Assembly: GCA_016748015.1 (NCBI GenBank)
Contig: JAAOMT010000445.1
Coordinates: 372,001 to 436,000, forward strand
Length of the DNA stretch: 64,000 nt
Origin: Geosiphon pyriformis uo1
Lineage: Eukaryota; Fungi; Glomeromycota
Reading direction: 5' to 3'
Shown here: positions 1 through 58,700 of the stretch, one piece after another
Layout of the letters: each line of letters begins with the position of its first letter
Position numbering within the stretch: the first letter of the stretch is position 1
The notes under the pieces: model-generated
What the model was told of the DNA's origin: nothing
The model's database searches: none
What the model saw: only the letters and a program-made list of their open reading frames with translations
Program-made: the position numbers and the translations under genes

Positions 1-3000
1 AAATCAATATTGAAATCCCAATTACCGGTTCTCAACTCCAAATCATTATTCGAATCAAAATCAATATCAATTTATTTACCTACCAATAATGCTACCACTA
101 ATCTATCAAACACCAATATATCAACCTCAAATATATCAACTGCAACCACCCATAATATATCAACCACAGCCACAAATAGTCTATTAACCACAACAATCAA
201 TTCAAACACTGCCACAAAACCCAGCTACAATAACATCTGGAAACCCCAGATTCAGAGTAACCCAAAACTGGAGATCGGCGATGGTGGTTTACCAACTGAT
301 CCTCAGTTCAACAAATCAACTATCAAGATCATGCCAGCAGAGTTCAAGAACTGGGTATAACCAAAACCTGAGTTCTCAGAACTACTTAAGTCTTCTGGTT
401 ACCCTAGAAGATGTGGCATCCAGCAAACAGAAAACCAATCAGAAGCCACTTATCTGCAACATTTCACCAGCTGCCAGCACCAAAGACAAATCACTTGCTG
501 CCATATTCCCATTTAAACTTGAGGAAATTATGTCAGTTCTATTGTTCAGTAGAGCTATTCTAGACACCAAACCAATAACCACAATGTATACTGATGTCAA
601 AGTTGATGGTTAGTATATTAAACTGATCCTAGATAGTAGATCAACTGGCAGCATTATCACCAAACAACTCATGGATCAATTAAGTTGCCGAGTTGACAGA
701 GCTGCCAGCGCAAAAATTATCACAGCTGATGGAGCAACCAAAACTTCTATTGGTGAGATTGATGACTTTTCTTTTGAAGTCAATGGCATTATAGTCCTTA
801 TCAAAGTTTTGATAATGGAAGCTACTCAATACCAAGCACTAATTGGTAATAACTGGCTCACTAAGACAAACACCATCTTTGATTGGACAATGCAAGAGCT
901 CTAACTCAGCCAAAATAGCTAACATACATGTGTACCAGCCATGTGTGGCCACTTCAAGACTATCAACACACCAGCACCACTCATCAAGTTTGAGGAAGAA
1001 GAGGAAAAACCTACCTGGGAAGCCTATCAAGTCTTGTGAACTAACAACTACCACCAATACTCTCCTGAGATGACAACAATAATAAAAAAAGAAAACAAAG
1101 AGAAGAACATACCTGGAGAACCACCATCAATGCTTGGACTGACAACAACCAAAGTGAGTTGCTACCAACAATAAGCTGGGAGGAAAAAAGGAAAGGGAAA
1201 GAAAAAGAAAAAAATGTACCTGGAGAAATCAAACCAACAGAAGACACAACCAAAGGATGGACAAGTTCATACTCCATTTGCCAGCTGCTACCACAGCCAC
1301 CATTTATTCCACTTAAATGCAAAGACTGTGGAAAAAAACTCTTGTCCATAAGAGCATAGATTGCACCAAATGAAGACCACTGGATGTGAACACATTATTA
1401 TTGCAAACCATGCCATCACAAATGCTACGGATATCCAAAGTGCCAAGGCAAGTGGAACAATGAACCATGTCTTGCTTGTGGTAAACAGCTATTCGACAAG
1501 GAGATATGGAATGACATTTCTGATCAAAGAAGAACATGCGACACTTCATACCAGTACACAATTCTTATTAGTAATTGAGTAAGTCGTGGCATGCCTATAA
1601 CAGCAGCTTGGCATAGAGTGATTAACCGATTGGATGACTACTTACATAATGAGAATGAGATCTGGTGAATGGCAAATGCCAAAGTCCAAGGAGCCACACC
1701 CAATAAAATTCTGGAAATTAAAAACAACCCACCTGAACAGATTGACATCATCTTTGTTCCAAATCTAGATGCTTTTCTCAACATAAAAACTAATCCAGAA
1801 GACTTCTATAAGCATTACCAAAACTTGGCACCTACAAGAAAAGAGCAGGAGCAGTAGCTAGCATAGTTAAATACTTGACTATGTGACTACTGTTTGATCC
1901 CATGTGACTTTCAATATTGTAATGAGTGTAACCTCATTTACAATCCACCAATCCGCATGATCTACATAATTCCAGAAAAAGAAAAACCAATCAGCAGCTG
2001 CACATCAGAATTGGAATCAATTTTCAATCCCGATTTAAACTCTAACAACGACAATGACAAAAACACCAGTTCCAGCTCTATTCAATATAGCAATGAAGAT
2101 AACAGCAATTTGGACTCAGATCCAAACTCCAAAACATTTATAGCACTTTTTGACCTTACCAAGGAGCAAGAACTAAAGTGGTTCAGTGACAATAATGAAG
2201 GTATTATGCCAGAGTATGCACATGATACTAATACAGGGTTTGATCTAAGATATCCTAGAAAAAATGCCATCAAATTGGAACCATATTTGCATACTTGCAT
2301 TGATCTGAAAATAGCACTGGAAATTCTAGCAACCACAATGGTTTAACTAGCATCTAGAAGTAGTCTAACAAAAAGAGAAATTAACATTAGAGGAGGAATA
2401 ATTAATGCAAGATATATGGGAAATATCATTGTTATGCTACAAAACAATTCAGAAAAGACTTATGTAATAGAGCCAAATGAAAAGATAGCACAGGCAATAT
2501 TCCTGCCTCTGGTTAAAATAGTTCAGTTAGTGTCAGTGGGAAACAGGGAAGAATTAGGGATCACAGCTAAAGGGATACAGAGATTTGGATCAATGGGTAG
2601 AGTAGATATACCAGTTAATATGGTGGAAAAAAAGATTATTGACAAGGAAGAAATTATCTCCACTGGTCAACCAATTTTCATTCTACCATATGATCAGTAT
2701 ATGGTAGTCATAGAAAGGAAAGTAAAAAATCAAAACCAGATTTTTGAAACAGAAGCAGCACATTGTGAATCAGGAGAAATTGGACTCATTAATCTTCACA
2801 TATCAGCCAGGAACTATAGCTACATCAAAATTCTCATTTACAACAACACTGGAAAAGTTATAGAAATACCAGAAGGAACTATCATAGAACATTTAACTAC
2901 TGAAATAGAAGACCAACCACCAAACCCCATTTCAGACTTTCCACAGCTTTGTGAATATGTTGACATCACATTACAAATGATATATAGACAAAATGAATGT

Positions 3001-4431
3001 TATTTGTTTCAACCAGAACAATTAAAACAAATGAACATGGGGAATCTAAACCCATTCCAATGCATGCAGCTAAAGATGTTGCTCAACAAGTTTAATGACA
3101 TCTTCGCCAGCAAGAATGAATTCAGCAAAACTGACATCATCCAGCATCAGATCAAAACTGAAGATGCTATGCCAATAAAACAATGAGCATACAGAGTACT
3201 ACCCACCAGCCATGAGATTATTCATCAAGAAATCAACCAGATGCTTGACAACAAACTAATTCAGTCATCAATGAGCCTATGGTCATCATCAATAGTACTC
3301 ATCCAGAAAAAGAATGAGAAAATCCACTTTTATATAGACTACAGAAAGCTTAATGAAGTCATGCATGAAGACAGCTATCCAACTCCATAGATTCAAGAAT
3401 TATTTGATGCTTTTGGAGGAAACAAATGGTTCTCAACATTGGATTTAGATAGTGGTTACTGGCAAGTAGCCATGGATCTAGTGGACAAAAAAAAAACCAC
3501 ATTTACAACACAGGAGGGAAATTTTAAATTCGAAGTGATGCCATTCAGCTTAACAAATGCTCCAGCCACATTTCAGTGGCTAATGGAAATAGTATATACT
3601 GGCTTATTGTGGAAATCAGTAGTCGTTTATTTAGATGACACCAATGTGTTTTTCAAAACATTTGATAATCATTTGCATCATCTATAATAAGTGTTTGAAA
3701 GACTATGACAAGCAGGGCTAAAGTTAAATGCCAATAAGTGCTTCTTTGGCAAAACAGAATTAAACTTTTTAGGGCACATAGTAAGCAAAGACAGCATCAA
3801 AACGGATCCAGAAAAGATAGAGATAGTCAAGAACTTTCCAGTACCAACCAATGTGACAGAGTTAAAGTTATTTTTGGGATTCACAGGCTATTATTAACGC
3901 TTTATCAAAAACTTTTCCAAGATAGCCCAACCACTCAATCATCTCCAAACCAAGAATGTGAAATATGAATGGACAAAAACACAACAAGAAGCTTTTGATA
4001 TTCTAAAAAGAAAGCTTATACAAGCTCCAGTACTGATCTATCCAGATCACAATAAACTATTTATCATTACCACCGATGCATCAGGCCAAGCATTGGGAGC
4101 AATAATATTACAGAGAAAACTGGATGAAAGAAAACATCCAGTTGCATATGCCAGCTGAGGTTTAACTTCAGCTGAAAAAAATTATAGAACACCAAAATTA
4201 GAACATTTAGCAATTTATTGAGCAGTCATGAAATGGAGTAAATACTTGAGCCAGAAGTTTGATGTATACATAGACTACAAAAGATTAACAGCACTTCATA
4301 AACAGGAATTTGGAGATGGAAAACAATCAAGATGGAAAATGGCACTATCACCATATACTTACACTATACATTATAAAAAGAGAAAAGACAATAGAAATAC
4401 TGATGGTTTATCACGAATGAGACAAATCTAA
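1..4431 (+). pseudogene. gag-pol (Gag C-term, aspartic protease ~580-960, Cys-rich block, dUTPase, RT ~3100-3800, RNase H ~4050-4431) of element A, many premature stops
   Basis: ORF fragments at 281, 671, 1894, 2416, 3439, 3958 and 4228 join into one polyprotein. Motifs: LDLDSGYWQV, FEVMPFSLTNAPATFQ, VYLDD, TTDASG, NTDGLSR. Stops are mostly TAA/TAG/TGA replacing Q, R or W codons. Confidence 0.93.
2179..2600 (+). pseudogene. dut: dUTPase domain within Pol of element A
   Basis: All five trimeric dUTPase motifs: TGFDL, ASRSSL, GGII(N)ARYMGNI, EKIAQAIF, TAKGIQRFGSMG. Confidence 0.9.
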
Positions 4432-4492
4432 AAACATCTCAACCCAAAAATATAACAAAACCAGAACAAACCCAATGAAAATATAACAAAAG

Positions 4493-5875
4493 ATGAACAT
4501 ACAAAAATATCAACAACTACAACATTATATAAAGACCCAATTGTTTAAGGAAAAATTATCTCAAAAGAAACAAAACAACATAAAACAACAATCAAAATAT
4601 TTTATCAATCATCAAAATATACTTTACTGGAAGAACAAAAGAAATCCAGATTAACTGACCAAGGTAATTACAGAACCAGAGAAAGAGACAATACTATTCA
4701 ACATATACTCAGATCTAACAGCAGGACATTTTCATAAAGAAGTGACCATAGAAAGAACCAGAAGAGGATATTATTGGCCATTAATGTATCCAGATATTAT
4801 CCAATATGTTCAAAATTGTGATGCTTGTCAAAGAAAAAGAGGAACAAGACCCAGTGAATCATTAAAACCAATCAAAATGGGACAATCATTTGATCACATT
4901 GGAATTGACTTAGTCAGACCACTAACAATCACCAGCGGAGACAACAGATATATCACAGTAGTCATGGACTATCTCACAAAATGGCCAGAAGCAAAAGCCA
5001 TTCAAAGAGCAGATACAGAATCTGTTGCCGAATTTGTTTATCAAGATTTGATTTGTTGACATAAATATCCAAAAGAACTATTATCAGATCAGGGAACTCA
5101 CTTTGTGAACAGAACATTAGCAGAATTAAGCCAAAGATTTGGAATAAAAAGACCATTATTATCACCATACTATTCACAAACGAATGGCTTAGTGAAAAGA
5201 TTTAATAAAACACTGTGTGAAGCAATTGCCAAAATCAGCCAAAAAAATCAAGACAAATAAGATTTGTTTATACCATTAGTATTATTTGCTTATCAGACAA
5301 TGAAGCAAGATACCACACAAGCAACACCATTTGAATTGGTATATGGTAGAACAGCAACATTACCAGTTGAGATAGAGATCAATACATATCCAGCTGAACC
5401 AATAACAGAAGATAATTTTCAAGAAACATTGTTGAAAAGAACATATAACTTAATAGAAATACTAGAAAACAGATGACAGAAAGCAGCTGATAATATCCAA
5501 AAGGCACAAGAAAAGCAAAAATAACAACACAATAACCAACTACTAGATAAACCAGTGGAATTCAAGATTGGAGACAAAGTACTATTACATCATACCAAAG
5601 TGGAAAAACAATGGAATGGAAAATTTGATCCCTAATGGGATGGACCATTTCACATAGAAAAAATTCTAAGAAATAAAGCTTATAAATTAAAATGAAACAA
5701 CAAAATCTTAGCCAAAGCAGTACATGGTGATTGACTAAAACCATATTACCAGATAGCATCATTATCCACCAATACCATTCCACAGTTGAGAGTACAAAGA
5801 ATAATAGTTCAACCAGATGAGATTCCATGAGATCTGGAACCAATCATAGTTATTGAACCAAACACATCAAATTGA
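4493..5875 (+). pseudogene. Stand-alone integrase ORF of element A (HHCC, DDE core, GPF motif; no chromodomain seen)
   Basis: ATG 4493 (MNIQKYQQL) is in frame with AGHFH..YYWP..CDACQ, GIDLV, DYLTKWPEA, SDQGTHF, QTNGLVKRFN and WDGPF; 460 codons to TGA at 5873-5875. Confidence 0.9.
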
Positions 5876-5930
5876 ACAACCAAAAGAGGATATAAAAACA
5901 CAGTACATGCAATAAAAGCAACCAAGAAAA

Positions 5931-6566
5931 ATGAAAATACCAGATCACATTCACATCATAGCTCAATAATTGTCTCAGGCACTAAGTCAACAACAGTTAA
6001 ACATGGAAATTGTCATCAACAACCAAACAATTTGCTATCAAAACACAAAAAAAAAGACAAAGAATACACCATATTAGTGGCCACCAAAGAATAATAAAAA
6101 CTGAACAGATAACTTAATAGAAAAAGTGAAGAACACTTTTGGGAAAATACCTATTATAGCACTAACAGAAGAGTTTATAAAAAAAAATTGGAAGCAATGG
6201 ACAGAACGACTTCCAATATCATATTGCTACTACCAGTTAGGTCAAAAGTTGAATATTCAAGAGTTGTATATTGACAAATCCAAGAGAATATTCAACCAAA
6301 ACATGATACAACAAATTGAAGAATTTATCGGAAAGAAAACTAATTCAACATTACATGTTAAAACAATGTACTGACTACACAACATATTTCAGAACTATTC
6401 AGAAATACTGTTACACTCTGACATGGAAACCATAACCATTAACCAATGAGGAAGAATAAACAATACACAAGTAGAAGATGTGAAAAACAGAATCGAACAA
6501 ACAATACTTGAAAAAAAAGTATTAGAATTAATTCAAAACAAAGATTTTGATGGAGCTTAATATTAA
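5931..6566 (+). pseudogene. Accessory ORF (211 codons) between integrase and PPT of element A, unknown function
   Basis: MKIPDHIHIIAQ...YCYYQLGQKL...DFDGA(Q)Y*; homologous ORFs lie in the same position in B, C, D and E. Confidence 0.8.
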
Positions 6567-6578
6567 AAGGAGGAGATA
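6564..6578 (+). other. Polypurine tract of element A
   Basis: TAAAAGGAGGAGATA immediately before the LTR start at 6580. Confidence 0.8.
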
Positions 6579-6579
6579 A

Positions 6580-7382
6580 TATTACTCATAAAAAGAAAAC
6601 AGATATAGAAAATAGCAGACCAATGAGAAAATAGTATTTAGCATGTAAGCACATTGCTTAGCAATGTGGAGCAATGTCAAAAATCATGGCACATTGCTCA
6701 GCAATGTAGAGCAATGTCAGAAAACACAGCATATTGCTCAAGAAATCATAGCACATCACTTGGAAATGTGAGCAATTTTATAGAACATCAATTATGTATA
6801 TATAGTGATAGTATTAAAAGTAAAAAAAGCAGAATCTTTTAGTTAGAAATCTCTCATTTACAAATATTGAAAAATAAATTATTTACCATCCAAATCCACT
6901 CTTCACTATCAACACTCCATGTTGATAGCAATTGATACTTAACTATACTGGAACAATAGCTCTTGATTATGGCTATTGACAGATACTAACTTGCACATTG
7001 TCTTGGCTTATTTCTTTATGTTATTTCTTTATTTTCTTGTCTTAATTGTTGTTATTACTAACTCTATTGAGGATTAACACATGGGGTACTGACATTAAGA
7101 TATAGTACTGGTAAAAGACCTAGAAATAAAAATAGAACACTTGATTGAGGTTAGCTTATCAGAAGAAACACTGGCCATCATGCTGAGAAAAAAATTGACA
7201 AAACTGCAGTTTCGGAAAGCTACGGATAAAACTATTACCACTGAATCTCTGTCCATTATACAAAGAATTCAACCAAAACCTTCAGATAAACACACCTTCA
7301 GATTTCCATTATTGACACTAGCTTTAAGCACCAAATTATGGGTTTGTTATTTACTTTAACAACCAAATAATCATTTGTAACA
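6580..7382 (+). repeat. 3' LTR of element A
   Basis: Ends T(A)TTAC...GTAACA; U3 tandem repeats 6648-6780; TATA-like TATATATAG ~6797; aligns with B LTR 13343-14206. Confidence 0.92.
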
Positions 7383-10300
7383 ACATGGACCGACAATGAT
7401 GACAATGAACCAACATCAAATTGGGAGTGGGAAGAAGATAAAGGAAGAGACAAAGGGAAAGAGAAAAAAAAAGACACCATTCAAGCCAATAACACTTATA
7501 TTCCAGCCACCTACACTTCATCACAACAGTCTATCTATTGCCGATCCAAACTAATATGCATCAATTGTGGCAAGAAATTGTCATTAATAGATGCTTGTTG
7601 TAGCAAAAATGAAGAATACACTTCGGCAACAAAATTCTACTGCTGCCTATGTGTTAGTGAACGCTTTGGAAGGCCAAAATGGGTTGAAAAATGAGACAAT
7701 AAACCATGCTTGGCTTGTGAAGAAACTTTTCTAGACAAAAAAATGTGGAACAACATTCCTGAGTGAAGAGGAATGTGTGACAAGTCATGTCAATACACAA
7801 TTTTCATAAGTGACTGGGTAAGAAAAAAAATGCCCATAGACACTGCCTGAAGATAAGTCATTAAACGTCTGGACGGGTGCCCACATGATGATGATGAAAT
7901 CTGGCAAATAGCACTCGCCAAAATCAAAGGAGTGATTCTAGAAGAAATAAAAATGATTAAAAATAACCCACTTAAACCTATAGAACTTAACTGAGACCCA
8001 AAACCAGTCATAAATTTCTTAGATCCAGAACAATTCCATGAACATTACCAAGAGCTAGTATCTATCAGGGAAGAACAAGAGCAGTATTTGGAGCAATTGA
8101 ATACTTAGTTATGTCAACATTGCTTAATTCTTTGTGACTTTCAATATTGTAATAAGTGTGACCTCATTTACAATCCACTACTATGCATAATCTACATGAT
8201 TCCAGAAGAAAAACCAATCAGTAGCTGCACATCAGAATCGAAATCAGTTTTCAATTCCAATTCAAACTCCAACAATGATGACAATAAAAACACCAGTTCT
8301 AGCTTCACGCAATATGACAACAAAAATATCAATGATTTGGACTCCAATTCAAATCCCAAAATATACATTGCACTTCCTGATCTCTCTAAGGAGCAAAAAC
8401 TCAAATGGTATAGTGATAATAATAAAGATATCATGCCAGAATGCACATATGATACCAATACAGAGTTTGATTTGAGATATTCCAGGAAAAATTCTATCAA
8501 ATTGAAACCACATTTGCATATATGTATTGATCTTAAAATAGCTCTGGAAATTCCAGCAACAATTATGATCTAATTAGGATCTAAAAGTAGTTTGGTGAAA
8601 AAGAGAATCAACATCAGAGGAGGAATAATTGATGCAGAATATGTAAGAAATATCATTGCCATGCTACAAAATAACTCAGAAAAGATCTATATTATAGAGC
8701 CAAATAAAAAAATAGCACAAACAATATTCTTACTTCTGGTGAAAATAGCTCAGTTAGTTTCAGTGGAAAAGAGAGAAAAATTAGGTATAACAGCAAGAGG
8801 GATACAGAGATTTGGATCAACGGATAGAATAAATATACCAGTCAATATGGCAGAGGAAAAAATTGTTGACAAAGAAAAAATTATTTCAACCCGTCAATTA
8901 ATTTCCATTCTATCATATGACCAGTATATGTTAACCATAAAAAGAGAAGTAAAAGATCAAGCTCAGTTGTTTGAAGCAGAAGCCACTATTTGTGAATTAG
9001 GAGAGATTGGACTCACTAATCTCTACATATCAGCCAAAAGCCCCAAAAACATCAAAATACCCATCTATAACACAACTGAAAAGGTTATCAAAATACCAAA
9101 GAGAACTATCATTGGATATTTAACCAAACTACGTTTCAGATTTTCCACAACTTTGCAAATATGTGGACATTACATCACAAACCATTTACGAATAAAACAA
9201 ATATTATCTGTTCCAACCAGAACAATTGGAACAGATGAACATAGAGAATCTAGACTCACTTCAACAGATATAACTAAAGATGTTACTCAACAATTTCAAT
9301 GACATCTTTGCAAGTGAAAATGAATTTGGCTGCACCAACATTATCCAGCATTAGATCAAAACTGGAGATGAAATGCCAATTAAACAAAAAGCATATAGAG
9401 TACCACCAGCTAGCCATAAAATCATTCATCAAGAAATTAACCAAATGCTTGACAATGGGCTAATTCAGTCATCAATGAGCCCATGGTCATCACCAGTGAT
9501 ACTAGTCTAGAAAAAGAATGGAAAGATTCATTTCTGTATGAATTATCAAAAACTGAATGGAGTAATTAAAGATGATAGTTATCTAACTCCAAAGATCCAA
9601 GAACTATTTGACACTTTTGGTGGAAATAAATAGTTCTCAACATTAGATCTAGATAGTAGATACTGGCAAGTAGCCATGGATCCAGCCGACAAAAAAAAAC
9701 AGCATTTATTACAAGAAAAGGAAATTTTGAATTTGAAGTCATGCTATTTGGCTTGATGAATGCTTCAGCAACATTCCAATGGTTTATGAAAATTGTCTAT
9801 ACTGGACTACTATGGAAATCAGTAGTTATATACTTGGATAACACCAATGTGTTTTCAAAAACATTTGATGATTATCTGTACCATCTCCAAGAAGTGTTCG
9901 AAAGATTAAAAAGAGCTGGATTGAAACTAAATACAACCAAATGTTTCTTTGGAAAAACTGAACTCAAGTTTTTGGGATATGTAATAAGCAAAGATGGAAT
10001 CAAAACAGATCCAGACAAGATCAAAGTAGTTAAAAACTTTCCAGTACCAACCAATTTAACAGAACTAAGAGCATTTTTGGAATTTGCAGGCTACTATTGT
10101 TGCTTTATCAAGGACTTTTCTAAACTAACTCAGCCACTTCACCATCTACAAACCAAAAATATAAAGTATGAATGGGCTGAAGCTCAACAAAAAGTTTTTG
10201 ACATATTGAGAAGAAAGCTTATCCAAGCTCCAGTATTGATGTATCCAGATTACAACAGACTATTCATCATTACTACTGATGCATTAGATCAAGTATTGGG

Positions 10301-10525
10301 AGCAATACTCTCACAGAAAAAACCCAATGGAAGGAGTACTTGAGTCAAAAGTTTGAAGTATACACTGATCACAAAGAATTGACTTCAATCCAGAAACAAG
10401 AATTTACAGATAATTACTATGTCAGATGGAAAATAGAACTTTTACCATTCACTTATACAATACATTATAAAAAGGAAAAAGACAATAGAAATGCTGATGG
10501 ATTGTCACAAATAAGACAAATCTAA
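7383..10525 (+). pseudogene. pol remnant of element B (Cys block, dUTPase, RT, RNase H with ~110-bp deletion)
   Basis: ORF fragments 8196, 8592, 9741 and 10340; ends NADGLSQIRQI*. Confidence 0.9.
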
Positions 10526-10555
10526 AAACATTTCAACCCAAAAATATAACAAAAA

Positions 10556-12637
10556 ATGAATACACAAAAATACCAACAATTTCAGCATTATATAAATACT
10601 CAATTGTTCAAGGAAAAATTATCTCAAAAAGAACAAACCAACATAAAACAGCAATCAAAATATTTCATTAATCATCAAAATATACTTTATTAGAAGAACA
10701 GAAGAAATTCAGATCAACCAACTAGAGTAATCACAGAACCAAAAAAAGAAACAATACTATTCAACATGCACTCAGATTCAACAGCAGAACATTTTCATAA
10801 AGAAGCGACCATAAAAAGAACCAGAAAAAGATATTATTGGCCATTAATATATCCAGACATCATCTAATATGTTCAAAATTGTGATGTTTGTCAAAGAAGA
10901 AAAGGAACAAGACCAAGTAAACCATTAAGACCAATCAAAGTGGGACAACCATTTGATCATATTAGAATTGACTTAGTCAGACCATTAACAATCACCAGTA
11001 GAGACAACAGATATATCACAGTAGCCATGGACTATCTCACTAAATGACCAGAAGCAAAAGCCATTGAAAGAGCAAATGCAGAATCTATTGCTGAATTTGT
11101 TTATCAAGATTTGATTTGTTGACATGAATTTTCAAAAGAACTATTATCAGATCAAGGAACCCACTTTGTAAACAGAACATTAGCAGAATTAAGTCAAAGA
11201 TTTGGAATCAAAAAACCATTATTATCACCATACCATCCACAAACAAATGGGTTAGTTGAGAGGTTTAACAGAACATTGTGTGAAGCAATCACCAAGATCA
11301 GTCAAAAAAATCAGGATGAATAGAATTTGTTTATACCATTAGTATTATTTGCTTATTGGACAATAAGACAAGATACTACACAAGCAATACCATTTGAATT
11401 AGTATATGATAGAACAGCAACATTACCAATTGAGATAGAAGTCAAAACTTATCCAACAGAACCAATAATTGAAGACAATTTTTAGGAAATGTTGCTAAGA
11501 AGAACATATGACTTGATAGAAACACTAGAAAACAGACAATGAAAAGCAGCTGACAACATCTAAAAGTTACAAGAAAAGCAAAAAGAACAACACAATAACC
11601 AATGTTACGGGATGGTTTTCTTGTTATATTTAATTGCTAATATTCTGCTTTAATTGCAATCAGTCTTTCGTGAGTTCCTTAATTCTATTTGTGTGATAAT
11701 GTCATTGTTACACTGAAGGCTTTCTTTTTACTGTTGCAATGTAAGTTATTCTTTAATTCTTGATTGTTGTGTGTGTTTATGTACTCCTTCTCAGAGGCTG
11801 AACTGAAATCTACCCACTGTNNNNNNNNNNNNNNNNNNNNNNNNNNNNNNNNNNNNNNNNNNNNNNNNNNNNNNNNNNNNNNNNNNNNNNNNNNNNNNNN
11901 NNNNNNNNNNNNNNNNNNNNNNNNNNNNNNNNNNNNNNNNNNNNNNNNNNNNNNNNNNNNNNNNNNNNNNNNNNNNNNNNNNNNNNNNNNNNNNNNNNNN
12001 NNNNNNNNNNNNNNTTTTATTACTTGATTGATTATTTCCCAATATTAAAACTACTGTATATATACATGTTTGTAGTTCTACGAGAAAATACTTTCTTTTT
12101 GATATTTCAATCTGGTGTTTGCTGCTATCACCAGTTGGTGTTGGCTGCTATTGTGAACTGGTGCTTGCCACTATTGCGAGATAGTGTTTGGTACTATGTT
12201 AATCATTACCTTTCTAAGATTATTACTGTGCTATATTATGATTGAATAGTTTGTATTATTTTTATGATTCTTTTTGCTAAATTCTTAAACCATAACACCA
12301 ACTACCAAATAAACCAGTTGAATTCCAGATTGGAGACAAAGTACTATTACATCATACCAAAGCAAAAAAACAATGGAGTAAAAAATTCAACCCCAAATGG
12401 GACGGACCATTTCACATAGAAGAAATTCTTGGAAATGGAGCTTATAAACTAAGATGGGACAACAAAATCTTAGCCAAAGCAGCATATAGTGATCAACTGA
12501 AACCATATCACCAGATAGCATTATTATCTACCAATAACATTCCACAACTGAAAGTACAAAGAATACTAGTTCAACCAGATAAGATTCCACAAGATCTGGA
12601 ACCAATCATAGTTATTGAACCAAACATGTCAAATTGA
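10556..12637 (+). pseudogene. Stand-alone integrase of element B, interrupted by LTR insertion 11603-12297
   Basis: ATG 10556 (MNTQK); colinear with A 4493-5875 once the insert is removed. Confidence 0.88.
11603..12297 (-). mobile_element. Solo LTR (family F), spanning assembly gap 11821-12014
   Basis: TGTTAC...ATAACA ends; 4-bp TSD CCAA (11599-11602 / 12298-12301); homologous to 46682-47497. Confidence 0.85.
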
Positions 12638-12692: not shown

Positions 12693-13328
12693 ATGAAAAT
12701 ACCAGATCATATCCACACTATAGCTTAACAATTGTTCCAGGCCTTAAGTAAACAACAGTTAGACATGGAAATTGTTATTAACAACCAAATAATTTGCTAT
12801 CGGAACACCCAAAGAAAAACAAAAAACACACCATATCAGTGACCACCAAAGAATGATAAAAACTGGTCAAATAACATAATAAGAAAAATAAAAAACACTT
12901 TTGGGAAAATATCTATTATGGCACTAACAGAAGAACTTACAAAAGAGAATTAGAAGCAATGGGCAGAACAACTTCCAATATCATATTGTTACTACCAGTT
13001 AGGTCAAAAGTTGAATATTCAAGAATTGTATATTGACAAATCCAAGAGAATATTTAACCAAAACATAATACAGCAAATTGAAGAATTTATTGGAAAAAAA
13101 ACAAACTCAACACTACATGTGAGAACAATTTATCGACTGCACAACATATTTCAGAACTATCCAAAAATACTGTTACACTCTAATATGGAAACCATAATCA
13201 TTAATCAATAGGAAAGAATAAACAATGTACAAATAGAAGACATGAAAAATAAAGTCAAACAAACAATACTAAAAAAAGAAGTATTAGAGCTAATTCAGAA
13301 TGAAGATTTCAATAGAGCTTAATATTAA
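12693..13328 (+). pseudogene. Accessory ORF of element B
   Basis: Same length (636 nt) as and colinear with A 5931-6566; ends DFNRA(Q)Y* at the PPT. Confidence 0.8.
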
Positions 13329-13342
13329 AAAGAAGGAGATAA

Positions 13343-14206
13343 TGTTACTCATAAAAAGAAAACAAATATAGGGAAATAGTAGACCAATAAGTGAATAGTA
13401 TGTAGTATGTAAGCACATTGCTCAGCAATATAAAGCAATAACAGAAATCATGGCACATTGCTTAGCAATGTAGAGCAATATCAGAAAACATGACACATTG
13501 CTCAGCAATATGGAGCAATGTTAGAAAATTAGGGCACATTGCTCAAGAAATCATAGCACATCACTCGGGAATATGAGCAATCTCATAGAACATTAATTAT
13601 GTCTATATAGCAGTAGTGATAAAAGTAGAAAGGGCAGAATTCTTTAGTTAGAAATCTTCTATCCACAAATATCAAATAAATAAATCATTTACCATTCAAA
13701 TCCACTCTTCATTATCAACACTTTATGTTAATAGTAATTGATACTTAACCATACTGGAACAATAGCTCTTGATCATGACTATTGATGGATACTAACTTGT
13801 GTATTGTCTTGGCTTATTTCTTTATTTTTCTTTTATTTTTCTTTTCTTGATTTTATTGTTGTATATTAACTAATTAAGGATTAAAAGCGCTGAGTAATTG
13901 ACGTCATGAATAGCCTGGTAAAAAACCCAGAAATAAGGATAAAATTATATATATATTAACAGATAGCTTACCAGAAGGGCACGAATGCCAAAATAAACCA
14001 GCCACCAAGCTAAAGACAAAAATTGGGAACACAACTTACCAACCAACTACCTTGTCATTGAATTTCTGTCTATTATACAAAGAACTCAACTCTAAAAAAC
14101 CTTCAGATATAACCAACATACCAATAACACCAGTATTGTTAAGATATTGAACACCAAGTTACAGATTTGTTATTTGATTTGAGACCCCAAATAATCATCT
14201 GTAATA
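13343..14206 (+). repeat. 3' LTR of element B
   Basis: TGTTAC...GTAATA; PPT AAAAAGAAGGAGA upstream; U3 has one more repeat unit than A. Confidence 0.92.
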
Positions 14207-14592
14207 TCACCTTTAGGGATAATGTTTGGATGGTTCATGCTAAACATTGTACCTATATGGAGAAAACTGGATTGATTCTATTGAATGGTTTGGTTTTTGT
14301 GTTGATTTTTGGTTTGGCATTAAGGTTTTCTACTGGTGTAATCAAATTGCTTGGCATTACCAAAGCTTTTGGTGTTCATTTTGGGTTCTGTAAATCTTGT
14401 TCATTTTTCTCAGATATAAGTAATTCAGTCTCGATTTATATAGCTGCATAGTGTTGTTCTGATCAGCCCAAGTGACTGGTCACATGTAGAAAGTGCATAA
14501 TTTATGCCTAGTTTAGATCATTTCTTTGATGTACAGCATTAGGTAGTGTTTGGATCTCACTCATTAAATAATAATAATAATAATAATAATAA
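14207..14592 (+). mobile_element. LINE 3' end (ORF2 C-terminus, 3' UTR, (TAA)n tail)
   Basis: FRDNVWMVHAKHCTYMEK...IAA* is homologous to the end of ORF 17607-18410; conserved 3' UTR; (TAA)n tail ~14568-14590. Confidence 0.88.
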
Positions 14593-17224: not shown

Positions 17225-17621
17225 ATATTAACAAAAATTTGAGTTATTAATTAACATAAAATTATTTTTATAATTTTATCATTAATTAACATATATTATT
17301 ATTTTAAATTATTACTTATTATTACATTAAATTATTTAAATTATTATTTAATTAATAACTTAATTTGTGTAAAATACAAATATAATTAAATTGTAATAAT
17401 TAGATTATATAATATTTCAAATTATAAATTTGCTAAAATAATTAAATTTTGACAAAATATTTAACAACTTACTAAAATAATTAATAATTTACAGAAATAA
17501 CTTATAATTTAACAAAATATATTTTTAGTTTATTAGAATATTAAAAAAAAATACTAGATTATAAAATAATATTATAATAAATTATATAAAAAAAGAGTTT
17601 TTTTTTTTGAGAAAATATATT
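17225..17621 (+). mobile_element. Decayed 5' part of a C-family LTR, truncated by LINE insertion
   Basis: Aligns with 26928-27295 and 35831-36215. Confidence 0.65.
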
Positions 17622-18547
17622 TTTTGGTCAATTCATCGTGCACATTGGGAAATCAGTTGTAGTATGGGGGTGGTGACAGATAGTCTGCATACAGATATTG
17701 ATTGGTTTAGGTTGTCGCTGGTTTGGCATCCAGATTTTCACATGGCTGCTGGCTTCACTAGCAAGCGAACTGCTGGTTTCTGGACTTATTTTATAAAAGC
17801 ATTGCACCATTGGCTCTCTGTTGCCATGTGTAAGTGGCTTTATGATAAGCACTACCCCAGTGTGGTGTGTTTGTTTTGCAGTGATGTCGAGGTTTCAGAC
17901 CATGTGTTTTCTTGTTCATTTGATGCCAATGGTCGTGCTCAGTTGTTAGACGCTCATGCGGCAGTTTGGGATGTGTACTCCGGTTTGGATCATTTTTCCT
18001 CAGGTGTCTCACAGCTGATGTCTACTTGTGTATCTGACATTTCAGTTAGTACTGCTCTATGCAAAGGTTTTGTTTTTAAGAATTGGTTTTGTGAGTCTGT
18101 TTCTGTCTTTAAGGATTCCAGAATAGCAGGTCAGAATATTGTGGCCTTTGTGCATGAGTTTAGTTTGGCTTTTTGGAAAAATATTTGGTTGGTTCGTGCC
18201 AAGCACCGTGCTTTTATGGAAAAGAATGGGCTTATTCTGTGCGATGGGTCAGTTCTTGTCTCGATTTCTGGGCTTTCTTTAGGGCTGTCATCTAATGTGA
18301 CTTGGCTGCTGGGTGTTGTTGAGGCGATTGATATTGGTTTTGGATTCTGTAAGTTTTGTTTGTTTTTTTTAGGCACAGAAGGTGAGGTTTCTGTTTATAT
18401 AAGTGCTTAGTGTTGTCCTGATTGGTCCGAGTGGCTGGTCACGTGTAGATAAAACATGATTCACACTTAGTTTAGATCATTTGTATAATGTATTGTACTA
18501 GGCAGTATTTGGATTTCACTCATTAAATGTTAATAAAAAAAAAAAAC
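17622..18547 (+). mobile_element. 5'-truncated LINE copy: ORF2 C-terminal zinc-finger region, 3' UTR, poly(A)
   Basis: Open frame to TAG 18410 with VWHPD..., CLFC...DHVFSC (CCHC); UTR 18411-18530; A tail. The first codons of the tracked ORF (17607) come from the flanking LTR. Confidence 0.9.
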
Positions 18548-26927: not shown

Positions 26928-27866
26928 TGTTATCAGTAGAATTTTAGTTATTAATTAACATAAAATTACCTTTATAATTTTTATTATTAATTAGTATATA
27001 TTATTATCATTGTAATTATTATTTATTATTTAAGCAAATTATTAAATATTATCATTTAATTAATAACCTGATTTGTACTATAGAAATTAAGATGATTAAA
27101 TTACACAATACTCTGAATTATTTAATATTTAAAAATTCGCCAAAATTAGTAAAAATTGGCCGAAATAATTAATAGTTTGTAAAAATAACTTGTAATTTGC
27201 TGAAATTGTAACAAAAGAAAAAAGTGCAATTCAAAGACTAGTATTATAACAAGTTGTATAAAAAAAAAGCTTTTCTCTTCAAAAAATGTATCTTATTATA
27301 GTATTTTACTTTAGATATCTTAATTAGAACAAATTATCTTTTACATATCTCAAATAAAAAAAAATTAAAATATTTGAAAACCAAATCTTTTAAATTATTA
27401 CACTTGAAATTCTCTTAATACAACCAATATTTTGAAATTAATTAGCTACCAATTTCAGTAATCTGTTAGTAACTTTAGGCCTGGATAAAAAATGTTTCTC
27501 TTGACAAAATTTTATTTTTTTTGCATTTATTTTATTTTTTTTTATTTTTTTATTATAATTATTAGAATAGCTTACAGACAAGATTTCTGTAAAAAAATTG
27601 AATTTCACAGCAAAGTAATTACATATTGTAGTGAGCTTCCAGATAAACAATTCCTAAGAAAAAATTGACATTACTATGACATAACTATACAAAATAAATG
27701 GCATAGAATTGGCTCTTTTACTTATAAGCCCAGCAGTTCAAATTATAAGAAATAATTTGAAGATAAATTCAGTTATTAGAGGTTTACTTGCTTCCAAAAA
27801 ATGTGAATTTACAACAAATAGGCATTAAAAACATTTAAAAAAAGAGACCAAAAATCTTCAATAATA
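26928..27866 (+). repeat. 5' LTR of element C
   Basis: Direct repeat of 35831-36796; followed by PBS. Confidence 0.9.
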
Positions 27867-30800
27867 TTTGGTGCTTTTTCACAAAAATAATACAGCAACA
27901 ATAACTTTAAAGTAACAATTATACCAAACACAACAACTTTAAAGTATTATTGGTCAATTTATATTTACTGTAAACAAAGATTTAACATCTAAGATGGAAT
28001 TAAAATTCTTAAGAAAACATTATACCAATACATTAAAAATCACATCAACAATTATTTTTTTGGAAATTACAATATTTTAGAAGTTAGAAGCAACTTCTAC
28101 AAAAATTTATTGCATTATTCTTACTTGAGAGCTGAAAATTTTAACAGTAAAACACTTGATACCTACTTTTACAAACTCAACTTTAATATTATCTAGTATT
28201 ATGAAGAAAAATACCCAGTATAGTCTAAATACTTTTTTGACTTTAAATCAAAACCAGAAAATAGTAACAGCAAAAAGCAGAAAAAAAAACATTGTAAATT
28301 AGCCATACAACTCACAACATACCAAAAACAACTGCTAAACACTTACAAATATCTAAACAAGAAATTAGTATCAAATTACCACTTTTTATTAGACTATTTC
28401 CAATTTTACTTGCTTAATCACAATCACCAAATTTATTTCTTATTTAATTTTCAAGACCAAAAGATTTTACATTACCAAAAAGTCTTATTCAATGACTAGA
28501 ATCTATATTTACTAGCACCAATCTTTTTGATTATCTAGCAGAAAACTCAAGCAATTGCTCTAATAATAATAAAAACATTTCTGAATTTATAGAGAAAAAA
28601 ACTGGTAAAAACAAAAATACAGAAGACATGACAGTCACTTATATTGCAAAAATTACTGAATTTACAGAAGAAAATGCTGACACTAGTTTTCAGGAATGGC
28701 TTAACAAAGTTCAGAAAATAGAAAATGTAAATGAATAAAATACAGCAAAAATGCTAAAAGCAATCTCATACTTCTTCCAAAAAACAGCAAAAAAATGTTT
28801 TAAAAACTTGGCCAACTCTTTTGAAAACTGGCAAGCATTCAAAAATGCTTTTTTAAAATAATTTACTAACAACAACACTTTAATTACTTTCCAAAATTAC
28901 TTCTGCAATATCAAACAAAAATTATCTAAAACTGTTATAATCTATTTTAGAAAATTCAACAAACTTTTCAAATGAATTTGACAATTGAATACCAATAACT
29001 ACTACTCTAATGCCCAGATTTTGGATCAGTTTATAGCAAAATTGAAAGATAAATTAATTAAGAAAGTTTATTTTCATGCTTTAACAGACTTAACTACAGC
29101 CATTTAACATATAAAAAACTATAAAATAGCTATAAAAGAAACAAATTGTACAAAGCTTGTAAATTTTGCTATAAAAAAAACCAGTTCAGTAGCCAAAGAG
29201 AAAATTGTCCAACTCACAAAAAAAGTTAAAAATTATTTTACCAATTAACAACAGCAACAACCACAAAGATATTAACCATCCCAATGATGCAATCAAAACA
29301 ATTACTTTTCACCATCCAACAACCAATTACAAAGCTGTTACTATTGTAGAATTTCAGGACATTGGAAATAAGATTGCAGAAAATTACAATAAAACTAATA
29401 AAACAGAAGTAATTAATATTATCTCCAACCTTAACAATTCTATTATCAACCTCTATTACAAACTTATTATTCACCAAGACTACAAAATTAAAACAGTTAC
29501 TATCAATCTGCTTTACAACCAATACAGCAGCAATATTAGCAATCTCTGCCAATTCAGCAATATTAACTACTACTCACTCAACAATATTAAGTATCTGCTT
29601 GAAAATCAGTTCAACAAAACCAATTTTTATCTCAAAATTACTTTCAAAGTAACAACCACAGAATCAACTTAAACAACTAGTTTGTTTCCCAAAATTCTGG
29701 TCAGTAAAAACCTAATTACTACTATACTTAACCCAGTTATTTAACAATGCCCAAAAAATTAGATTTTTAACAAACTATATTTTCTGAAGGTAAAACTGTA
29801 GTACCAAGATCAAATCTTTCCAACAATATTATCTTACCAGCCTAAATTGCCCAAAATGCCAATCTCTCAAATATCTTTTCATTTGAGTTTGAAGCCAATG
29901 AATTACCATTTTTGCTTAGTAATACAGTAGTCAATAAACAAAAAGCAATTACAGTTATATATATCAAAGCTGAAGTAAAAGAAAAACAAATCTGTTTAAT
30001 TTTAGATAATAGATTTGCCAGAAATATTATCATCTACTAGTTAATACAACAGCTTTAACAAACTGTTAACAGGCCTGCCCAGGCAGTTATTGTTATAGTA
30101 GATAATATGAAAAAAACTCCAGTAAGAAAAATTGACAATTTTTTCTTTACTATTGATAAAATTATCATTTCAATTAAAGTTTTTGTCATATATGTACTTC
30201 AATACTAAGCTTTTGTCAAAAACATTTGGCTTTTTAAGGCCAATGCAAAATTAGACTGAGAAACACAAAAATTAAAAATTTTATATCAAAAACAATATAT
30301 TTAAGTACTGGTTACATGTAGTACTTTTAATAAACAATCTAAAAAAGCCCCAGTATTCAAATTTGAAGAAGAGAAAGAAATGCCAATTACTAAAACATAC
30401 ATAGTTTTTGGAGCAATATTTAATTAGACTAAAAAAACAAAATAAGAAATCTTTAAGGAAACCAAAAAATAAAATATAGTTAAATATTTTACACCAAAAC
30501 TATGAAAACAACTATTTTATATTTTACTTAAATATAAAGATTACAAGAAAAAACTTTTATCAATAAGAGCATGCATATCTTCAGAAAAGAAATATGAAAC
30601 ACACATTTGTTATTTTTGCAAAACATGCCATAGAAAATGATTTGAATATTCTAAACAAAGTAGAAAATAGAACAATACTCCATGTCTTACATATAGAAAA
30701 ATACTATCAGAAGAATACAACTAGATTGATGTTGTAATAAGAGAAGTATGTGATCAAATCTGTCAATATGTACTTTCAATTGCAAAAAAAGTAAAAAGAG

Positions 30801-33583
30801 AAACCTTTTTTAATGTAGCATATAACAGTGCTTTTAATAAACTCTACTATTATCCATATAATGCTAAAATTATTTATGAATTGGCCATAGTTTTAATTAA
30901 TAGAGGAATCCAAAAAGATGTATGTCAAATAAAAAAAGCAGAATACATTAAATATACAATAGAATTAGCTGGATTTAATTATAAAAATAAAGTAGAAACT
31001 TATCATTAAATCACAAATTATGCTTATTTAACCAAAGAAACTTAAATTTAATGATTAGAGCAAATAAACATTCAGCTATATGAAAAATGTACTATGCCTT
31101 GTGATGACCAATAGTGTCTAGAATACTATACAATTAGCATTCTACTATTTAACAAAAATAATGAATTTAAAATTAAATTTAGAAAGCCTAAGCCAAAAAA
31201 AAAATTGCAACAACTTCAATCTACTTTACTAAAAATCAGTCAGCCATAAAACTTAAATATTTTAACAACAATGGCCAAGAAATTAAGCCAGAAAAAACAC
31301 ATAAAATACATGCTAAATACAATTTACAATACTCAGAAAAAAACACTTTGGTCTTTTAACCAAAATCTTTAACAAAAATCAACTTAAAAATTGCTCTTAA
31401 AATACTATCAAGAGCAATAATTCAAATTGTTTCCTGGTTATTATTAGCAAGCAAAGGAATCAATATTAGAAGAAGAGTTATAAATGCAGAATATACTGAA
31501 GATATTACTATTATGCTACAAAATAAAAACAAAAAACCATTCAAAATAGAACATGTTGAAAAAATTGGACAAGTTATTTATTTATTCTTATCAATATTTT
31601 AAGTCTGCAATTAGTTAACAACAAAAAACAACTAAAAAAAAGTGAAAGAAAAACCCAAGGTTTTGGTTTAACTAAACAATTTACAGTTTCAGTAAATATA
31701 GCTCTCAATATACAAAATAAATCTTACCAAATTCTTTGACTTTCCTAATCAATTACCATTTTATCTTTTGGAAAACATCATGAAATCTACATTTGTTTAA
31801 AGTCTACTACCACTTAACAAATCTTTGAATCAAATAAACAAATCTGTCTAAAGCATAAAATTTCAATTCCAAATGGCTATATTTCAAAAAAAATAAAGAA
31901 ATTTTGAGTTATATTTTACAATTTTAACAACTACTTTATCATTTTATTAAAAAAACTAGAAATTAGTATTATACATAGCAACATCTTCTAAAATAAAACA
32001 CTTCAAGTTGTCTTTAATTTCATCAAAATTATAAGACATATCTTACTTCTAAATCCAAATATTATTCTTATTACTAAAAACTACCATTTGTTAAAAGAAA
32101 AACTTTCTTAAATTAACATAGATTTTTTAAAACTCTAACAACAAAAACAAATAAAACAGTTAATAACTGAATTTGCTGATATATTTGCAAAAAATAACAA
32201 TAATTTAGGAAAAACAAATATTGTTCAACACCAAATCTATACAAAAGATGCTTCACCAAAATAGCAACAAACTTACTAAGTTTCATTTTTTAGTTACTAA
32301 TTCATCAGAAAAAAAGTTCAAAGAATGTTTAATAATAAATTAATTCAACCATTAAGAAGTTTATGGGCCTTAACCAGTGGTTTTTGTCAAAAAAAAAATA
32401 AGAAAATCAGATTTTGTATTAACTATTGTTAACAAAATAGTGTTACAACTGGAGATGTATATTTACTTCCAAAAATTAACAACATATTAGATGTTTTGAA
32501 AAAAGCCAAGTTTTTCTCAATATTAAACTTGGAAAGTGAATATTAACAAGTTAAAATAAATTCTAAGAACCACTTTAAAACAGCATTTACAACTTAAAAA
32601 GGAAACTATAAGTTTAATATTATATTATTCAGATTTTGCAATACACCAGCAATATTTCAGTGACTTATAGATGTTGTCTATAAAAGACTCTTATGACAAT
32701 CAGTAGTTGTCTATTTTGATAACATTAATATGTACTTTTTAAGCTTTAAAGTTTATTTAATTCACCTATAAGAAGTTTTTCAATAATTATGAAAAGCAAA
32801 ATTGAAATTAAACATTGAAAAATGTTACTTTGGAAAAACAAATTTGATTTTTTTTGGTTATATTGTTAGTAAAGATGGAGTGTTACCCAATCCAAAAACA
32901 ATTAGTGTTGTAAAAAACTTTAAAATTCTCCAAAATATCACAAAACTAAGAAAATTTGTTGGTCTAACTTCTTACTACCAAAAATTTATCAAAAAATTTT
33001 CAAAAATCACCAAATTTCTCAATCATCTCATCAACAAAAATATTAAATACCAATGGATGTTAACACAACAAACTGTATTTAACATCTTTAAAAAAAACTC
33101 ACAACAGTACCAATTTTTGCTTATTTAGACTTTAATAAATAATTTCAATTAGCCATTAATGCTTCACATATAGCTTTCAGTACTATTTTATTACAATTAG
33201 ATAATAATAACAATAAGCAAATAATTGTTTATGCCAATAAAACATTCAAACCAACAGAATTCAAATATAATTTAACAGAATTAAAAGCCATTGCAGTTAT
33301 TTGGGCTCTCAAATATTTTCAATAATATTTGAAAAATAGAAAAAAATTTGACATTATAACTAACAATATTGGCCTTAAATGGCTCAATAAAAAAAAATCT
33401 GAACAAAGTATTAAACAATCTTAATAGAATGATTTCTTAACAGACTAAAAATATATTGTACATTACAAACCAAGAAAACTACATACCAATATTGATAGTT
33501 TTTCAAAAATAAGACAAAATTAGCACCAAACAGCAATTTCACCACAATTTACCAATTTATTAATAAATAATAATCAAACAACA

Positions 33584-34967
33584 ATGAATTCCAAAGATTA
33601 CAACAATATTAAAAACTATTTGGAGACTCTTATTATGTCAGAAAATTGGTCTTTGAATGAAAACACTGATTACAATACCAAGTAAAATAATACTTTATTC
33701 ACCACAACAAAATCTACTATAAAAATTGTAGAAATCCAAACAAATTACTCAGATTAGTACAAAAAAACAAAAAAAAACAATCCTATATAATATGTACACA
33801 AATCTCTCTTCAGTATACTTGGGAAGAGATAGAACAATTTAAAAAACACTTGAACATTATTTTTGGCCTCAAATACAAAAAAACATTTAATAATATATAG
33901 AATCATATAATAGTTGTCAAAAAAGAAAAGAAATTTGACTTACTAAATCTCTAAATCCAATTAAAATTAGACAATTTTTTGACAAAATTGGTATCAATCT
34001 AGTTGGATTACTACTCATTACAAATCAAGAAAACTGTTATATTGTAGTTGCTGTAAACTATCTTACTAAATGGCCCAAAACCAGAGCCATCTAAAGAGCA
34101 GACACCAAATTAGTAGCAAATTTTATCTATAAAGACATCATTTGTAGACATAAATGCCCAATTGAACATTTATCTGATTAAAGAACACATTTTATAAACA
34201 ACTTGATTCAAGAAATTTGTGAATAGTTCAATGTTAAACAACTCTTATCTTCATTATATTATCCACAAATAAACAGATTAGTAAAACATTTTAACAGAAC
34301 ATTGTATAAATCATTAGCCAAAGTTTTAACTGATTTTAAGCAAGAATAGAATATTTTTATTCTATCAGTGTTACTAGCATATAGAACACTAAAACAAAAT
34401 ACTACAAAACACATATTTTTTGATTTAATCTATGAAAAAACAGCCATATTATCAATTAATTTTACAGTAGAAACATACTTAATACAACTAATTATTAAAG
34501 AAAACTTTCAAAAAATACTCCAATAAAGAGCCTATACACTTTTCAATACATTGGAAAAAAAATGATGAATTGCAGCAACTTATATTGAATACTCTCAAGT
34601 TCAATAAAAAGAATGATATGACAACAAATTATCACCAGTCACCAATAAATTTTAAATTAGAAACAAAGTTTTTTTACACAGAACTAAAACTGAAAAACAA
34701 TAAAGTGAAAAATTTGAACACAAATAGGATAGACCATTTTATATTTATAAAATTTTAGGCAATAGATTATACAAGTTAAGACTTAATAACAAAATTCTAG
34801 CAATAGTTGCACATAGAGATTGATTGAAACATTATCAGTTTAAAATTAATCCAGAACTATTAATTTCACAAATTGGTACTTATTTCTCTTTAATTAATTC
34901 TGAAAATATTCTTCAAAACTTAGAACCAATAATTATAATAGAATAACAACCAAACTTGAATATTTAA
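33584..34967 (+). pseudogene. Stand-alone integrase of element C
   Basis: ATG 33584 (MNSKDY) after the RNase H stop at 33521-33523; YFWP, GINLVG, NYLTKWP, HPQINRL, LEPIII. Confidence 0.85.
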
Positions 34968-35228
34968 TTTAACATTTTTTATAATAATCTCTTTAATAAT
35001 ACACAAAACATAAAACAAAAATAGTAAATAATTACAAAAAACACTTAAACCCAAAAACAAATAAAATCTTATATTCAAAAATAATTTTCTTTATTTTTTT
35101 TCAAATCTTTCTCAAATTTTCTTATTCAGTTAGTTATGTTATTATGATTATTTCTTAAAACATTTAACAATTATTCCAAAAATTAATGTTAGCTTTAAAA
35201 ATACTTCTTGACTTATCTATAATAATTA

Positions 35229-35819
35229 ATGGAAGTTAAATTAATTACATCCAAAAAAAAATTATGACACCAGTAGTAAATAATTCTCAGAATTATTATC
35301 TTTATAGAAAAAACACAAGAAGTTATTCTAGAAATCAATTATCAAAACTTTTGAAACAAGCTTTAAAAAAAACCTTTTAATTGCCTCTATTGATATTTCA
35401 CCAAATACCACAACCTAATAAAAACTTCTACTATTTTTTAATAAACAAAACAATAATTATATTCCTATCTATAGATATTTTCATATTGAAAGAACACTTT
35501 ATAAACAAAAACTAGAACTTAAAACAACAAATCTCACTCTTAAAGCTATACAAAAACAAATTTACAACAAATTTAAAACAGCAGCCAGACTAATAAATAC
35601 TTACTACAAACTTAGAAAAGCTTTTAAACTTTATAATTTGTTTAATACTTGTAAAAACGTCTTACAAAATCCAATACTGCAACCAATAAAAATTCAATAT
35701 ATTGGCAAACTCACAGAACTGAAATTTCAACAATTTTCAGACCAAATCATCATGATTATTTTGGACTACTATCTTAGTATTACAGATAGTGCTTGGACTT
35801 TAATAGAACTCAGTTTTGA
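35229..35819 (+). pseudogene. Accessory ORF of element C (frameshifted)
   Basis: MEVKLIT...YRYFHI(E)RTL...YKLRKAFKLYNLF...IQYIGKLT..F..F...LDFNRTQF* ending at the PPT. Confidence 0.72.
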
Positions 35820-35830
35820 AGAGAAAATTA

Positions 35831-39353: not shown

Positions 39354-39362
39354 TCATCCTTT

Positions 39363-41326: not shown

Positions 41327-41387
41327 GTTTATTTGTAAAAAAGTTACTAATAATTAAGTTGGTTTGGTTTGAGAGATTGTACTATTA

Positions 41388-56656: not shown

Positions 56657-56687
56657 AAACATTTCAACCCAAAAATACAACAAAAAA

Positions 56688-57999: not shown

Positions 58000-58057
58000 G
58001 ATTAAACAACCAAGGAGTATATAAAGACACAGTATATGCAACAAAAAACAGCAAAAA

Positions 58058-58686: not shown

Positions 58687-58700
58687 AAAGTAGAGAATAA

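Follow-up and report, generated by a model that had tools for sequence, protein, structure and literature searches.

LTR retrotransposons may carry additional ORFs downstream of pol and ahead of the 3′ LTR, a class already described, with roles that are mostly unknown, and what the non-envelope ones do is regarded as an open question (PMC7264820). The plant aORF-3S, also called 'env-like' (Vicient and Casacuberta, 2020, PMC7264820), resemble the gene described here, ORF3, in position, in sense orientation, in being present in most copies of a family and in having no known function; ORF3 differs from them in the lack of a TM segment, in its fungal host and in the separate integrase ORF that precedes it. 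Gene23 of the maize element Grande (PMC7264820) also occupies the 3′ internal region, has its own promoter and encodes a nuclear product, and provides the model for an activator reading of ORF3, although it is antisense, comes from a plant and is compared by description only. In fungi, the available text of Novikova et al. (2010, PMC2864245) mentions Gypsy elements with an 'additional ORF of unknown function' and with a dUTPase between PR and RT, both as in the elements studied here, but the rows in question are for chromoviruses of Ascomycota and Basidiomycota and the likeness is again by description only. The element Boty of Botrytis, as cited in PMC7264820, carries in brtn an extra ORF of a fungal Gypsy element which, unlike ORF3, is antisense.

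More distant systems share part of this layout. The third ORFs of bdelloid rotifer elements (Rodriguez et al., 2017, PMC5408684, in the portion available) are also non-envelope genes of Gypsy-like elements, some of which have a dUTPase, but their products can be recognised as enzymes (a GDSL esterase, a DEDDy exonuclease) or are TM proteins, whereas ORF3 has no family match. Likewise, in the sections available of PMC7828637 and PMC5902531, foamy virus tas/bel-2 and TAV/P6 are the last gene(s) before the terminal repeat, with an internal promoter and an action in trans on their own expression; ORF3 has no Pfam match above cut-off, and the analogy is one of layout only. Neither the ORF3 family nor a stand-alone Gypsy integrase was described in the articles surveyed, which did not extend to those on the Geosiphon genome or to Repbase; this includes, for the ORF3 family, the available text of PMC3248453, PMC13465315, PMC6696364 and PMC13524379. 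The gene described here is a third gene under selection in Gypsy elements with three cistrons; it is not an envelope gene, and its product belongs to no recognised family or fold.

The window, that is, the whole stretch of 64,000 nt of Geosiphon pyriformis DNA that was analysed, contains a cluster of five decayed Ty3/Gypsy elements (A to E), whose relevant features are as follows:

188–4431, forward strand: degraded protease, dUTPase, RT and RNase H region of element A, with a TAA at 4429–4431 (Pfam gag-asp_proteas, dUTPase, RVT_1 and RT_RNaseH)
4429–4495, 10523–10558, 33521–33585, 41325–41390 (reverse strand) and 56654–56692: RNase H–integrase junctions, with a further one at 772–801 of the metagenome element L001
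4493–5875, forward strand: integrase of element A, a separate ORF with its own ATG and with zinc-binding, core and SH3-like parts
5891–5897, forward strand: TATA-like box TATAAAA, a candidate internal promoter in the 55-nt spacer, 40 nt upstream of the ORF3 ATG of element A
5931–6566, forward strand: ORF3 of element A, a dead copy of 211 codons and a stop codon, interrupted by six premature stops
6552–6560, forward strand: GGAGCTCAA-type DNA motif adjoining the PPT, translated as GAQ in A, whereas the ORFs of C, D and L001 read it as ELN
6565–6579, forward strand: PPT of element A
6580: start of the 3′ LTR of element A; the TGTTAC LTR start is visible in element B
12693–13328, forward strand: ORF3 of element B, with five premature stops
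26928–27868 and 35831–36798: 5′ and 3′ LTRs of element C
35144–35850, forward strand: ORF3 of element C, with a frameshift near 35440, crossing the PPT and running 20 nt into the 3′ LTR
39323–39979, reverse strand: ORF3 of element D, 218 codons, crossing the PPT into the 3′ LTR, with homology to the A type that is suggestive only
39353, reverse strand: start of the 3′ LTR of element D
about 48577–49410 and 58700–59569: LTRs of element E
58058–58686, forward strand: ORF3 of element E, with the start codon lost and one frameshift, 40% identical in amino acids to that of A

The assignment to Ty3/Gypsy follows from the domain order in element A (protease, dUTPase, RT, RNase H and integrase by Pfam, hence PR-RT-RH-IN), and from the LTR pairs in C, D and E, which are 85–88% identical; additionally, TGGTGC, taken as the PBS, follows the 5′ LTR in C and E. 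The dUTPase domain of A lies at 2200–2560, between protease and RT, and has homologous regions in B, C and E, while none was found in the corresponding translation of D. CpG is strongly depleted in the window (o/e 0.14), and CG methylation of TEs has been reported for R. irregularis. The nine listed stops in the ORF3 copies of A and B pair with CAA, CAG, CGA, TGG or a stop in the other copy, and this pattern, together with the CpG depletion, indicates that the copies are dead.

The 3′ LTR of A (6580–7400) abuts directly on B's internal region, where gag is missing (see also 13345–14100); the junction is a tandem array with a single LTR in common, and junctions resembling it account for the chimeras found among Geosiphon gene models, P0010 and P0011 for example. 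Element B also contains a run of N at about 11820–12015, flanked by a duplicated or inserted block, and a solo LTR of the C family (51789–52740, reverse strand) is inserted in reverse within element E. Fragments of another repeat occur at 17565–18410, 14143–14451 and 38133–38432 and end in a Cys/His-rich region, which we take to resemble the C-terminus of non-LTR element proteins; the longest fragment had no match in Pfam. The synonymous distance between A (3661–6566) and E (55886–58686) is mosaic, with 1.15 in RNase H, 0.34 in integrase and 1.10 in ORF3, which suggests that modules may have been swapped between families.

The integrase is encoded outside the Pol polyprotein in the five elements and in L001, departing from the usual Ty3/Gypsy arrangement. 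The RNase H stop is followed by a C/A-rich spacer of 24–63 nt and by the integrase ATG in A, B, C, D and L001, and element E shows the same spacing with a mutated integrase start. The three-cistron layout with a separate integrase proposed in the initial annotation is supported. The integrases of A and L001 match H2C2, rve and, weakly, SH3_Tf2-1, with no Pfam match in either to the chromodomain that would mark a chromovirus. In L001 the order is RNase H stop, 24-nt spacer, integrase (with its own ATG and one internal stop), 316-nt spacer, ORF3, PPT and LTR start. The interruption of the L001 integrase is an in-frame TGA (L001:1564–1566), which also terminates two further database proteins, P0195 and P0196, at that residue; this family may either propagate a broken integrase or recode the TGA.

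ORF3 occupies the slot downstream of integrase, where env would be expected. In A it starts at its own ATG, 55 nt past the integrase stop, and the A and B copies are colinear frames of 211 codons with 77% amino acid identity. The Geosiphon protein P0006 is an uninterrupted relative of 211 aa, also 77% identical to ORF3 of A, and L001 carries an intact ORF3 of 230 aa in the same slot, which is about 25% identical to P0006. Among 1.84 billion representatives searched, 54 relatives were retrieved at E ≤ 0.001; ten of them were looked up, eight being Geosiphon gene models and two metagenome proteins, and every named ORF3 relative is from the glomeromycete Geosiphon pyriformis. Six gene-caller chimeras (among P0013–P0063, and P0197) have integrase sequence immediately upstream of ORF3, indicating that the gene sits in the same slot elsewhere in the genome. 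A profile from which element C was left out detects its ORF3 (hhalign probability 95.2, E 2.8e-8), and seven lineage representatives share 20–39% identity over 136–201 columns, with invariant columns along the full length. Both queries have as their best cluster in ESM Atlas a Mucoromycota-dominated one of 98 members and 190 aa (0.94), a lead to a wider distribution; scans of viral contigs gave no loci, and Rfam gave no matches on L001.

The ungapped comparison of ORF3 from A and B spans 627 nt with 90 differences, 80 of them transitions, and 34 of its codons changed synonymously. Permuting the changes under an unaltered mutation spectrum predicts 20.7 ± 4.0 and 20.3 ± 3.9, and the observed value was reached in only 4 and 2 of 5000 of them. 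The integrase core shows a like excess (46 synonymous changes versus 29 expected), and no excess was seen between A and B in the control comparisons, which were the shifted frames and three LTR frames. Between A and B, ORF3 has a dN/dS of 0.22 and integrase one of 0.27, below the value near 1 that the initial annotation had named as an argument against a gene. We placed the weight on this ungapped test because distant pairs rely on protein-guided alignment and have a saturated dS. Trees of ORF3, RNase H and integrase, with few rows and with D omitted from the first, agree in separating A, B and E from C and L001, a pattern that fits vertical inheritance. ORF3 is thus, like the members of the described class of extra ORFs, a separate sense ORF that follows pol and precedes the 3′ LTR, is conserved from copy to copy and evolves under selection. 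The intact copies in P0006 and L001 and the frame-specific selection bear out the proposal that an accessory gene is conserved at the position of env, and we consider it almost certain that ORF3 is a real gene, under purifying selection like integrase.

The 3′ end of the gene required several corrections. The claim that the ORF ends exactly at the PPT stands for A, B and E, where the native stop overlaps the first PPT bases, and fails for C, D and L001, where the ORF crosses the PPT and stops about 20–35 nt inside the LTR; the C frame, previously placed at 35229–35819, extends from the ATG at 35144 to 35850, and the D frame ends at 39323 instead of 39363. Similarly, the shared DF.G(A/T)Q(Y/F)* end that had been proposed is not a feature of the protein: A, B and E have the GGAGCTCAA motif in frame 0 of the ORF, whereas C, D and L001 have it in frame 2. 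A GAQ-type tail is present in 18 A-type proteins, while among the 120 D-type matches listed none has it and 57 read ELN(L/F)F. The caveat, voiced from the start, that GAQ could be a signal at the DNA level was therefore well placed. A GGAGCTCAA-type motif is conserved just 5′ of the PPT, in any frame, across families with unalignable LTRs (L001:3091–3099), and it is probably a cis signal, possibly for plus-strand priming or an RNA structure. A motif upstream of the PPT may also be present in chromoviruses.

The homology of the ORFs of the five elements, as initially proposed, is upheld for A, B, E and C by the identities and the profile match given above, while for D it is suggestive only. The D-type ORF3 is itself a family, with 125 matches, of which the 120 listed are all from Geosiphon and include 22 uninterrupted proteins of 210–220 aa. 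D and A-type sequences were not significantly similar by hhalign (probability 0.1–0.2) or local alignment (z 0.7–1.7), and hmmsearch profiles of the two types did not detect each other. These results would agree with two unrelated genes occupying the slot, one in A, B, C, E and L001 and the other in D, alike only in size, position and the PPT-adjacent DNA motif. Conversely, end-to-end alignment after removing the PPT tails is colinear (z 2.1–3.7; 0–9 of 300 block shuffles), the D end-to-end score was matched by 1 of 400 shuffles, and five D copies outscored most of 209 natural decoys, with 1–10 decoys reaching the lowest D score and none the highest. Additionally, D is the most distant element in the pol trees, which have few rows, so a weak similarity of its ORF3 is to be expected. 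Together, the comparisons make it probable that ORF3 of D is homologous to the A type, a judgement that we keep at this level because the end-to-end test was picked after the local tests had failed, and they leave two unrelated genes as an unlikely reading; this question is independent of function.

A helical protein without a TM segment, and therefore not Env, had been anticipated for ORF3, and both points were supported. In six of six proteins, a simple window scan found no TM-strength segment (maximum 19-residue Kyte-Doolittle values of 0.44–1.32), no signal-like N-terminus (N-terminal maximum 0.85) and no R-x-K/R-R furin site. The AF2 model of L001 ORF3, from a 20-row alignment, is all helical, with a mean pLDDT of 79 and of about 90 over residues 81–200, and with a low-confidence basic linker at residues 31–50; the fold of P0006 from its single sequence has a pLDDT of 36. 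The linker has a net charge of +4 to +7 in all six lineages that cover it and the helical core one of +1 to +12 in seven of seven, while the pI of the whole protein ranges from 5.4 to 9.7.

No known family was recognised for this protein. There was no family above the curated cut-off in Pfam (13 query proteins) or NCBIfam, no significant family in PHROGs (best E 0.0012, function unknown), no match at E ≤ 10 in PDB sequence searches with both profiles, and none at E ≤ 0.001 with Foldseek on PDB and BFVD. The VIA-align fold search gave best Z values of 4.5 and 3.7, none above background, and no chain at Z ≥ 5 among 48,161; this search barely covers residues 1–70, and a weak fold match does not amount to a new fold. 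The suggested similarity to KorB-like domains gained no clear support: 1r71 (KorB; Z 3.2, rmsd 5.2, 97 aligned) and 1vz0 (Spo0J; Z 4.2, rmsd 5.2, 87 aligned) are within background, tie with unrelated helical proteins and fall below the typical best Z of the background; SigmaF (Z 3.6, rmsd 2.4, 57 aligned) is among the tied unrelated helical matches. The resemblance to DUF1016_N/YhcG-N was not supported, with no match to PF17761, an hhalign probability of 1.4 (E 0.037) and z of 1.1–2.0, for a profile that aligned the diverse proteins from locus L026 on and five close ones, out of 77 of 80 loci that gave a protein. Closterovirus coat protein came up as an Atlas lead (score 0.93, 156 of 256 features), with recognition below threshold and neither a Pfam match nor a significant fold match. 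A similar helical domain may occur in Rhizophagus hypothetical proteins. The ORF3 core is thus predicted to be all-helical, and lacks a recognised family or fold.

The TATA-like box in the integrase–ORF3 spacer of A has counterparts at −42 and −40 from the ORF3 ATG in B and E and at −46 in D, against a background of 0.06–0.12 per 50 nt. Such a box is absent from all six RNase H–integrase spacers and from the 183-nt integrase–ORF3 spacer of C, and the only one in L001 is at −126; as A, B and E are related, the coincidence amounts to about two independent cases. A sigma-70 scan found nothing, this factor being bacterial and the host eukaryotic. Internal promoters have precedents in Grande gene23 (PMC7264820) and, in the parts available of the respective sources, in foamy virus (PMC7828637) and in the CaMV 19S unit, with its promoter in the RT–TAV spacer (PMC5902531). 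Transcription would start at the spacer TATA box and end in the 3′ LTR, and a short mRNA of this kind would be the simplest route to express a third cistron; judging from box positions and these analogies, we lean slightly towards ORF3 being made from its own short mRNA.

As for function, the reading that we tentatively prefer, at somewhat less than even confidence, is that ORF3 could be a nucleic-acid-binding activator of its own element. Carried into the nucleus by its basic linker, the protein would use its basic helical core to transactivate the cognate LTR or to counter silencing there, and nucleic-acid binding by this helical product of 210–230 residues would raise the expression of the element that encodes it. 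In the A–E comparison, dN is 0.40 for ORF3 and 0.12 for integrase, that is, ORF3 evolves about three times faster, and both ORF3 (0.57–0.69) and the LTR start (0.65) are more diverged than integrase (0.82–0.87). The basic linker and core, the rapid evolution and the joint divergence of ORF3 and LTR fit, if weakly, a family-specific nuclear factor in a methylating host; ORF3 and the LTR start may nonetheless have diverged together through nothing more than their adjacency in recombination modules.

A cytoplasmic translation transactivator or RNA-binding factor similar to caulimovirus TAV, which would favour reinitiation at the integrase ORF and perhaps blunt RNAi, is less probable than that activator, although the integrase does have its own ATG shortly after the RNase H stop (mutated in E), in spacers devoid of TATA boxes. 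TAV is about 520 aa long and ORF3 is much shorter, nor did any of the 13 query proteins reach a Pfam cut-off, which leaves TAV/P6 without a sequence match; the parallel lies in CaMV, whose last gene, in the available text of PMC5902531, also has a TATA box in the post-RT spacer and transactivates reinitiation. It appears still more doubtful that ORF3 is a particle or pre-integration-complex cofactor, for nuclear import, target-site choice or internuclear movement in coenocytic hyphae, replacing the missing chromodomain. The absence of a chromodomain match in the integrase and a basic linker that could serve as NLS would suit this role, and similar ones have been proposed for plant aORFs (PMC7264820), but the threefold faster evolution of ORF3 suggests that tight binding to integrase is unlikely. 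Functions outside the readings considered here hold a small remaining share of the probability. The occupied env slot and the conservation of the last 9 nt of the motif as DNA would agree with a membrane or Env-like protein, with an extended tail of the integrase or with DNA conserved for non-coding reasons, but these readings are largely refuted and very improbable: the hallmarks of Env are missing from the six proteins scanned, the integrase stop lies 55–316 nt upstream of ORF3 in all six elements, so ORF3 is not its tail, and selection is confined to one frame in a gene with intact ORFs.

LTR elements make up 41% of the G. pyriformis genome, according to the available part of PMC11952901. 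A far-reaching and rather unlikely scenario is that a widespread Gypsy lineage of Glomeromycotina independently evolved a 'complex retrovirus' design, in which three cistrons include a separate integrase and a rapidly evolving trans-activator of new fold, expressed from an internal promoter and acting on the cognate LTR or on integrase translation, and that this design helped it to spread through a large part of the Geosiphon genome in spite of CpG methylation. Because ORF3 offers a defined family, intact copies, a confident model without a fold match and a candidate promoter, the role of such a gene becomes testable here. The 'hypothetical protein' models of Geosiphon and their relatives that are transposon genes or chimeras with them number at least 170 (54 + 125), and orphan-gene counts in these fungi are therefore affected.
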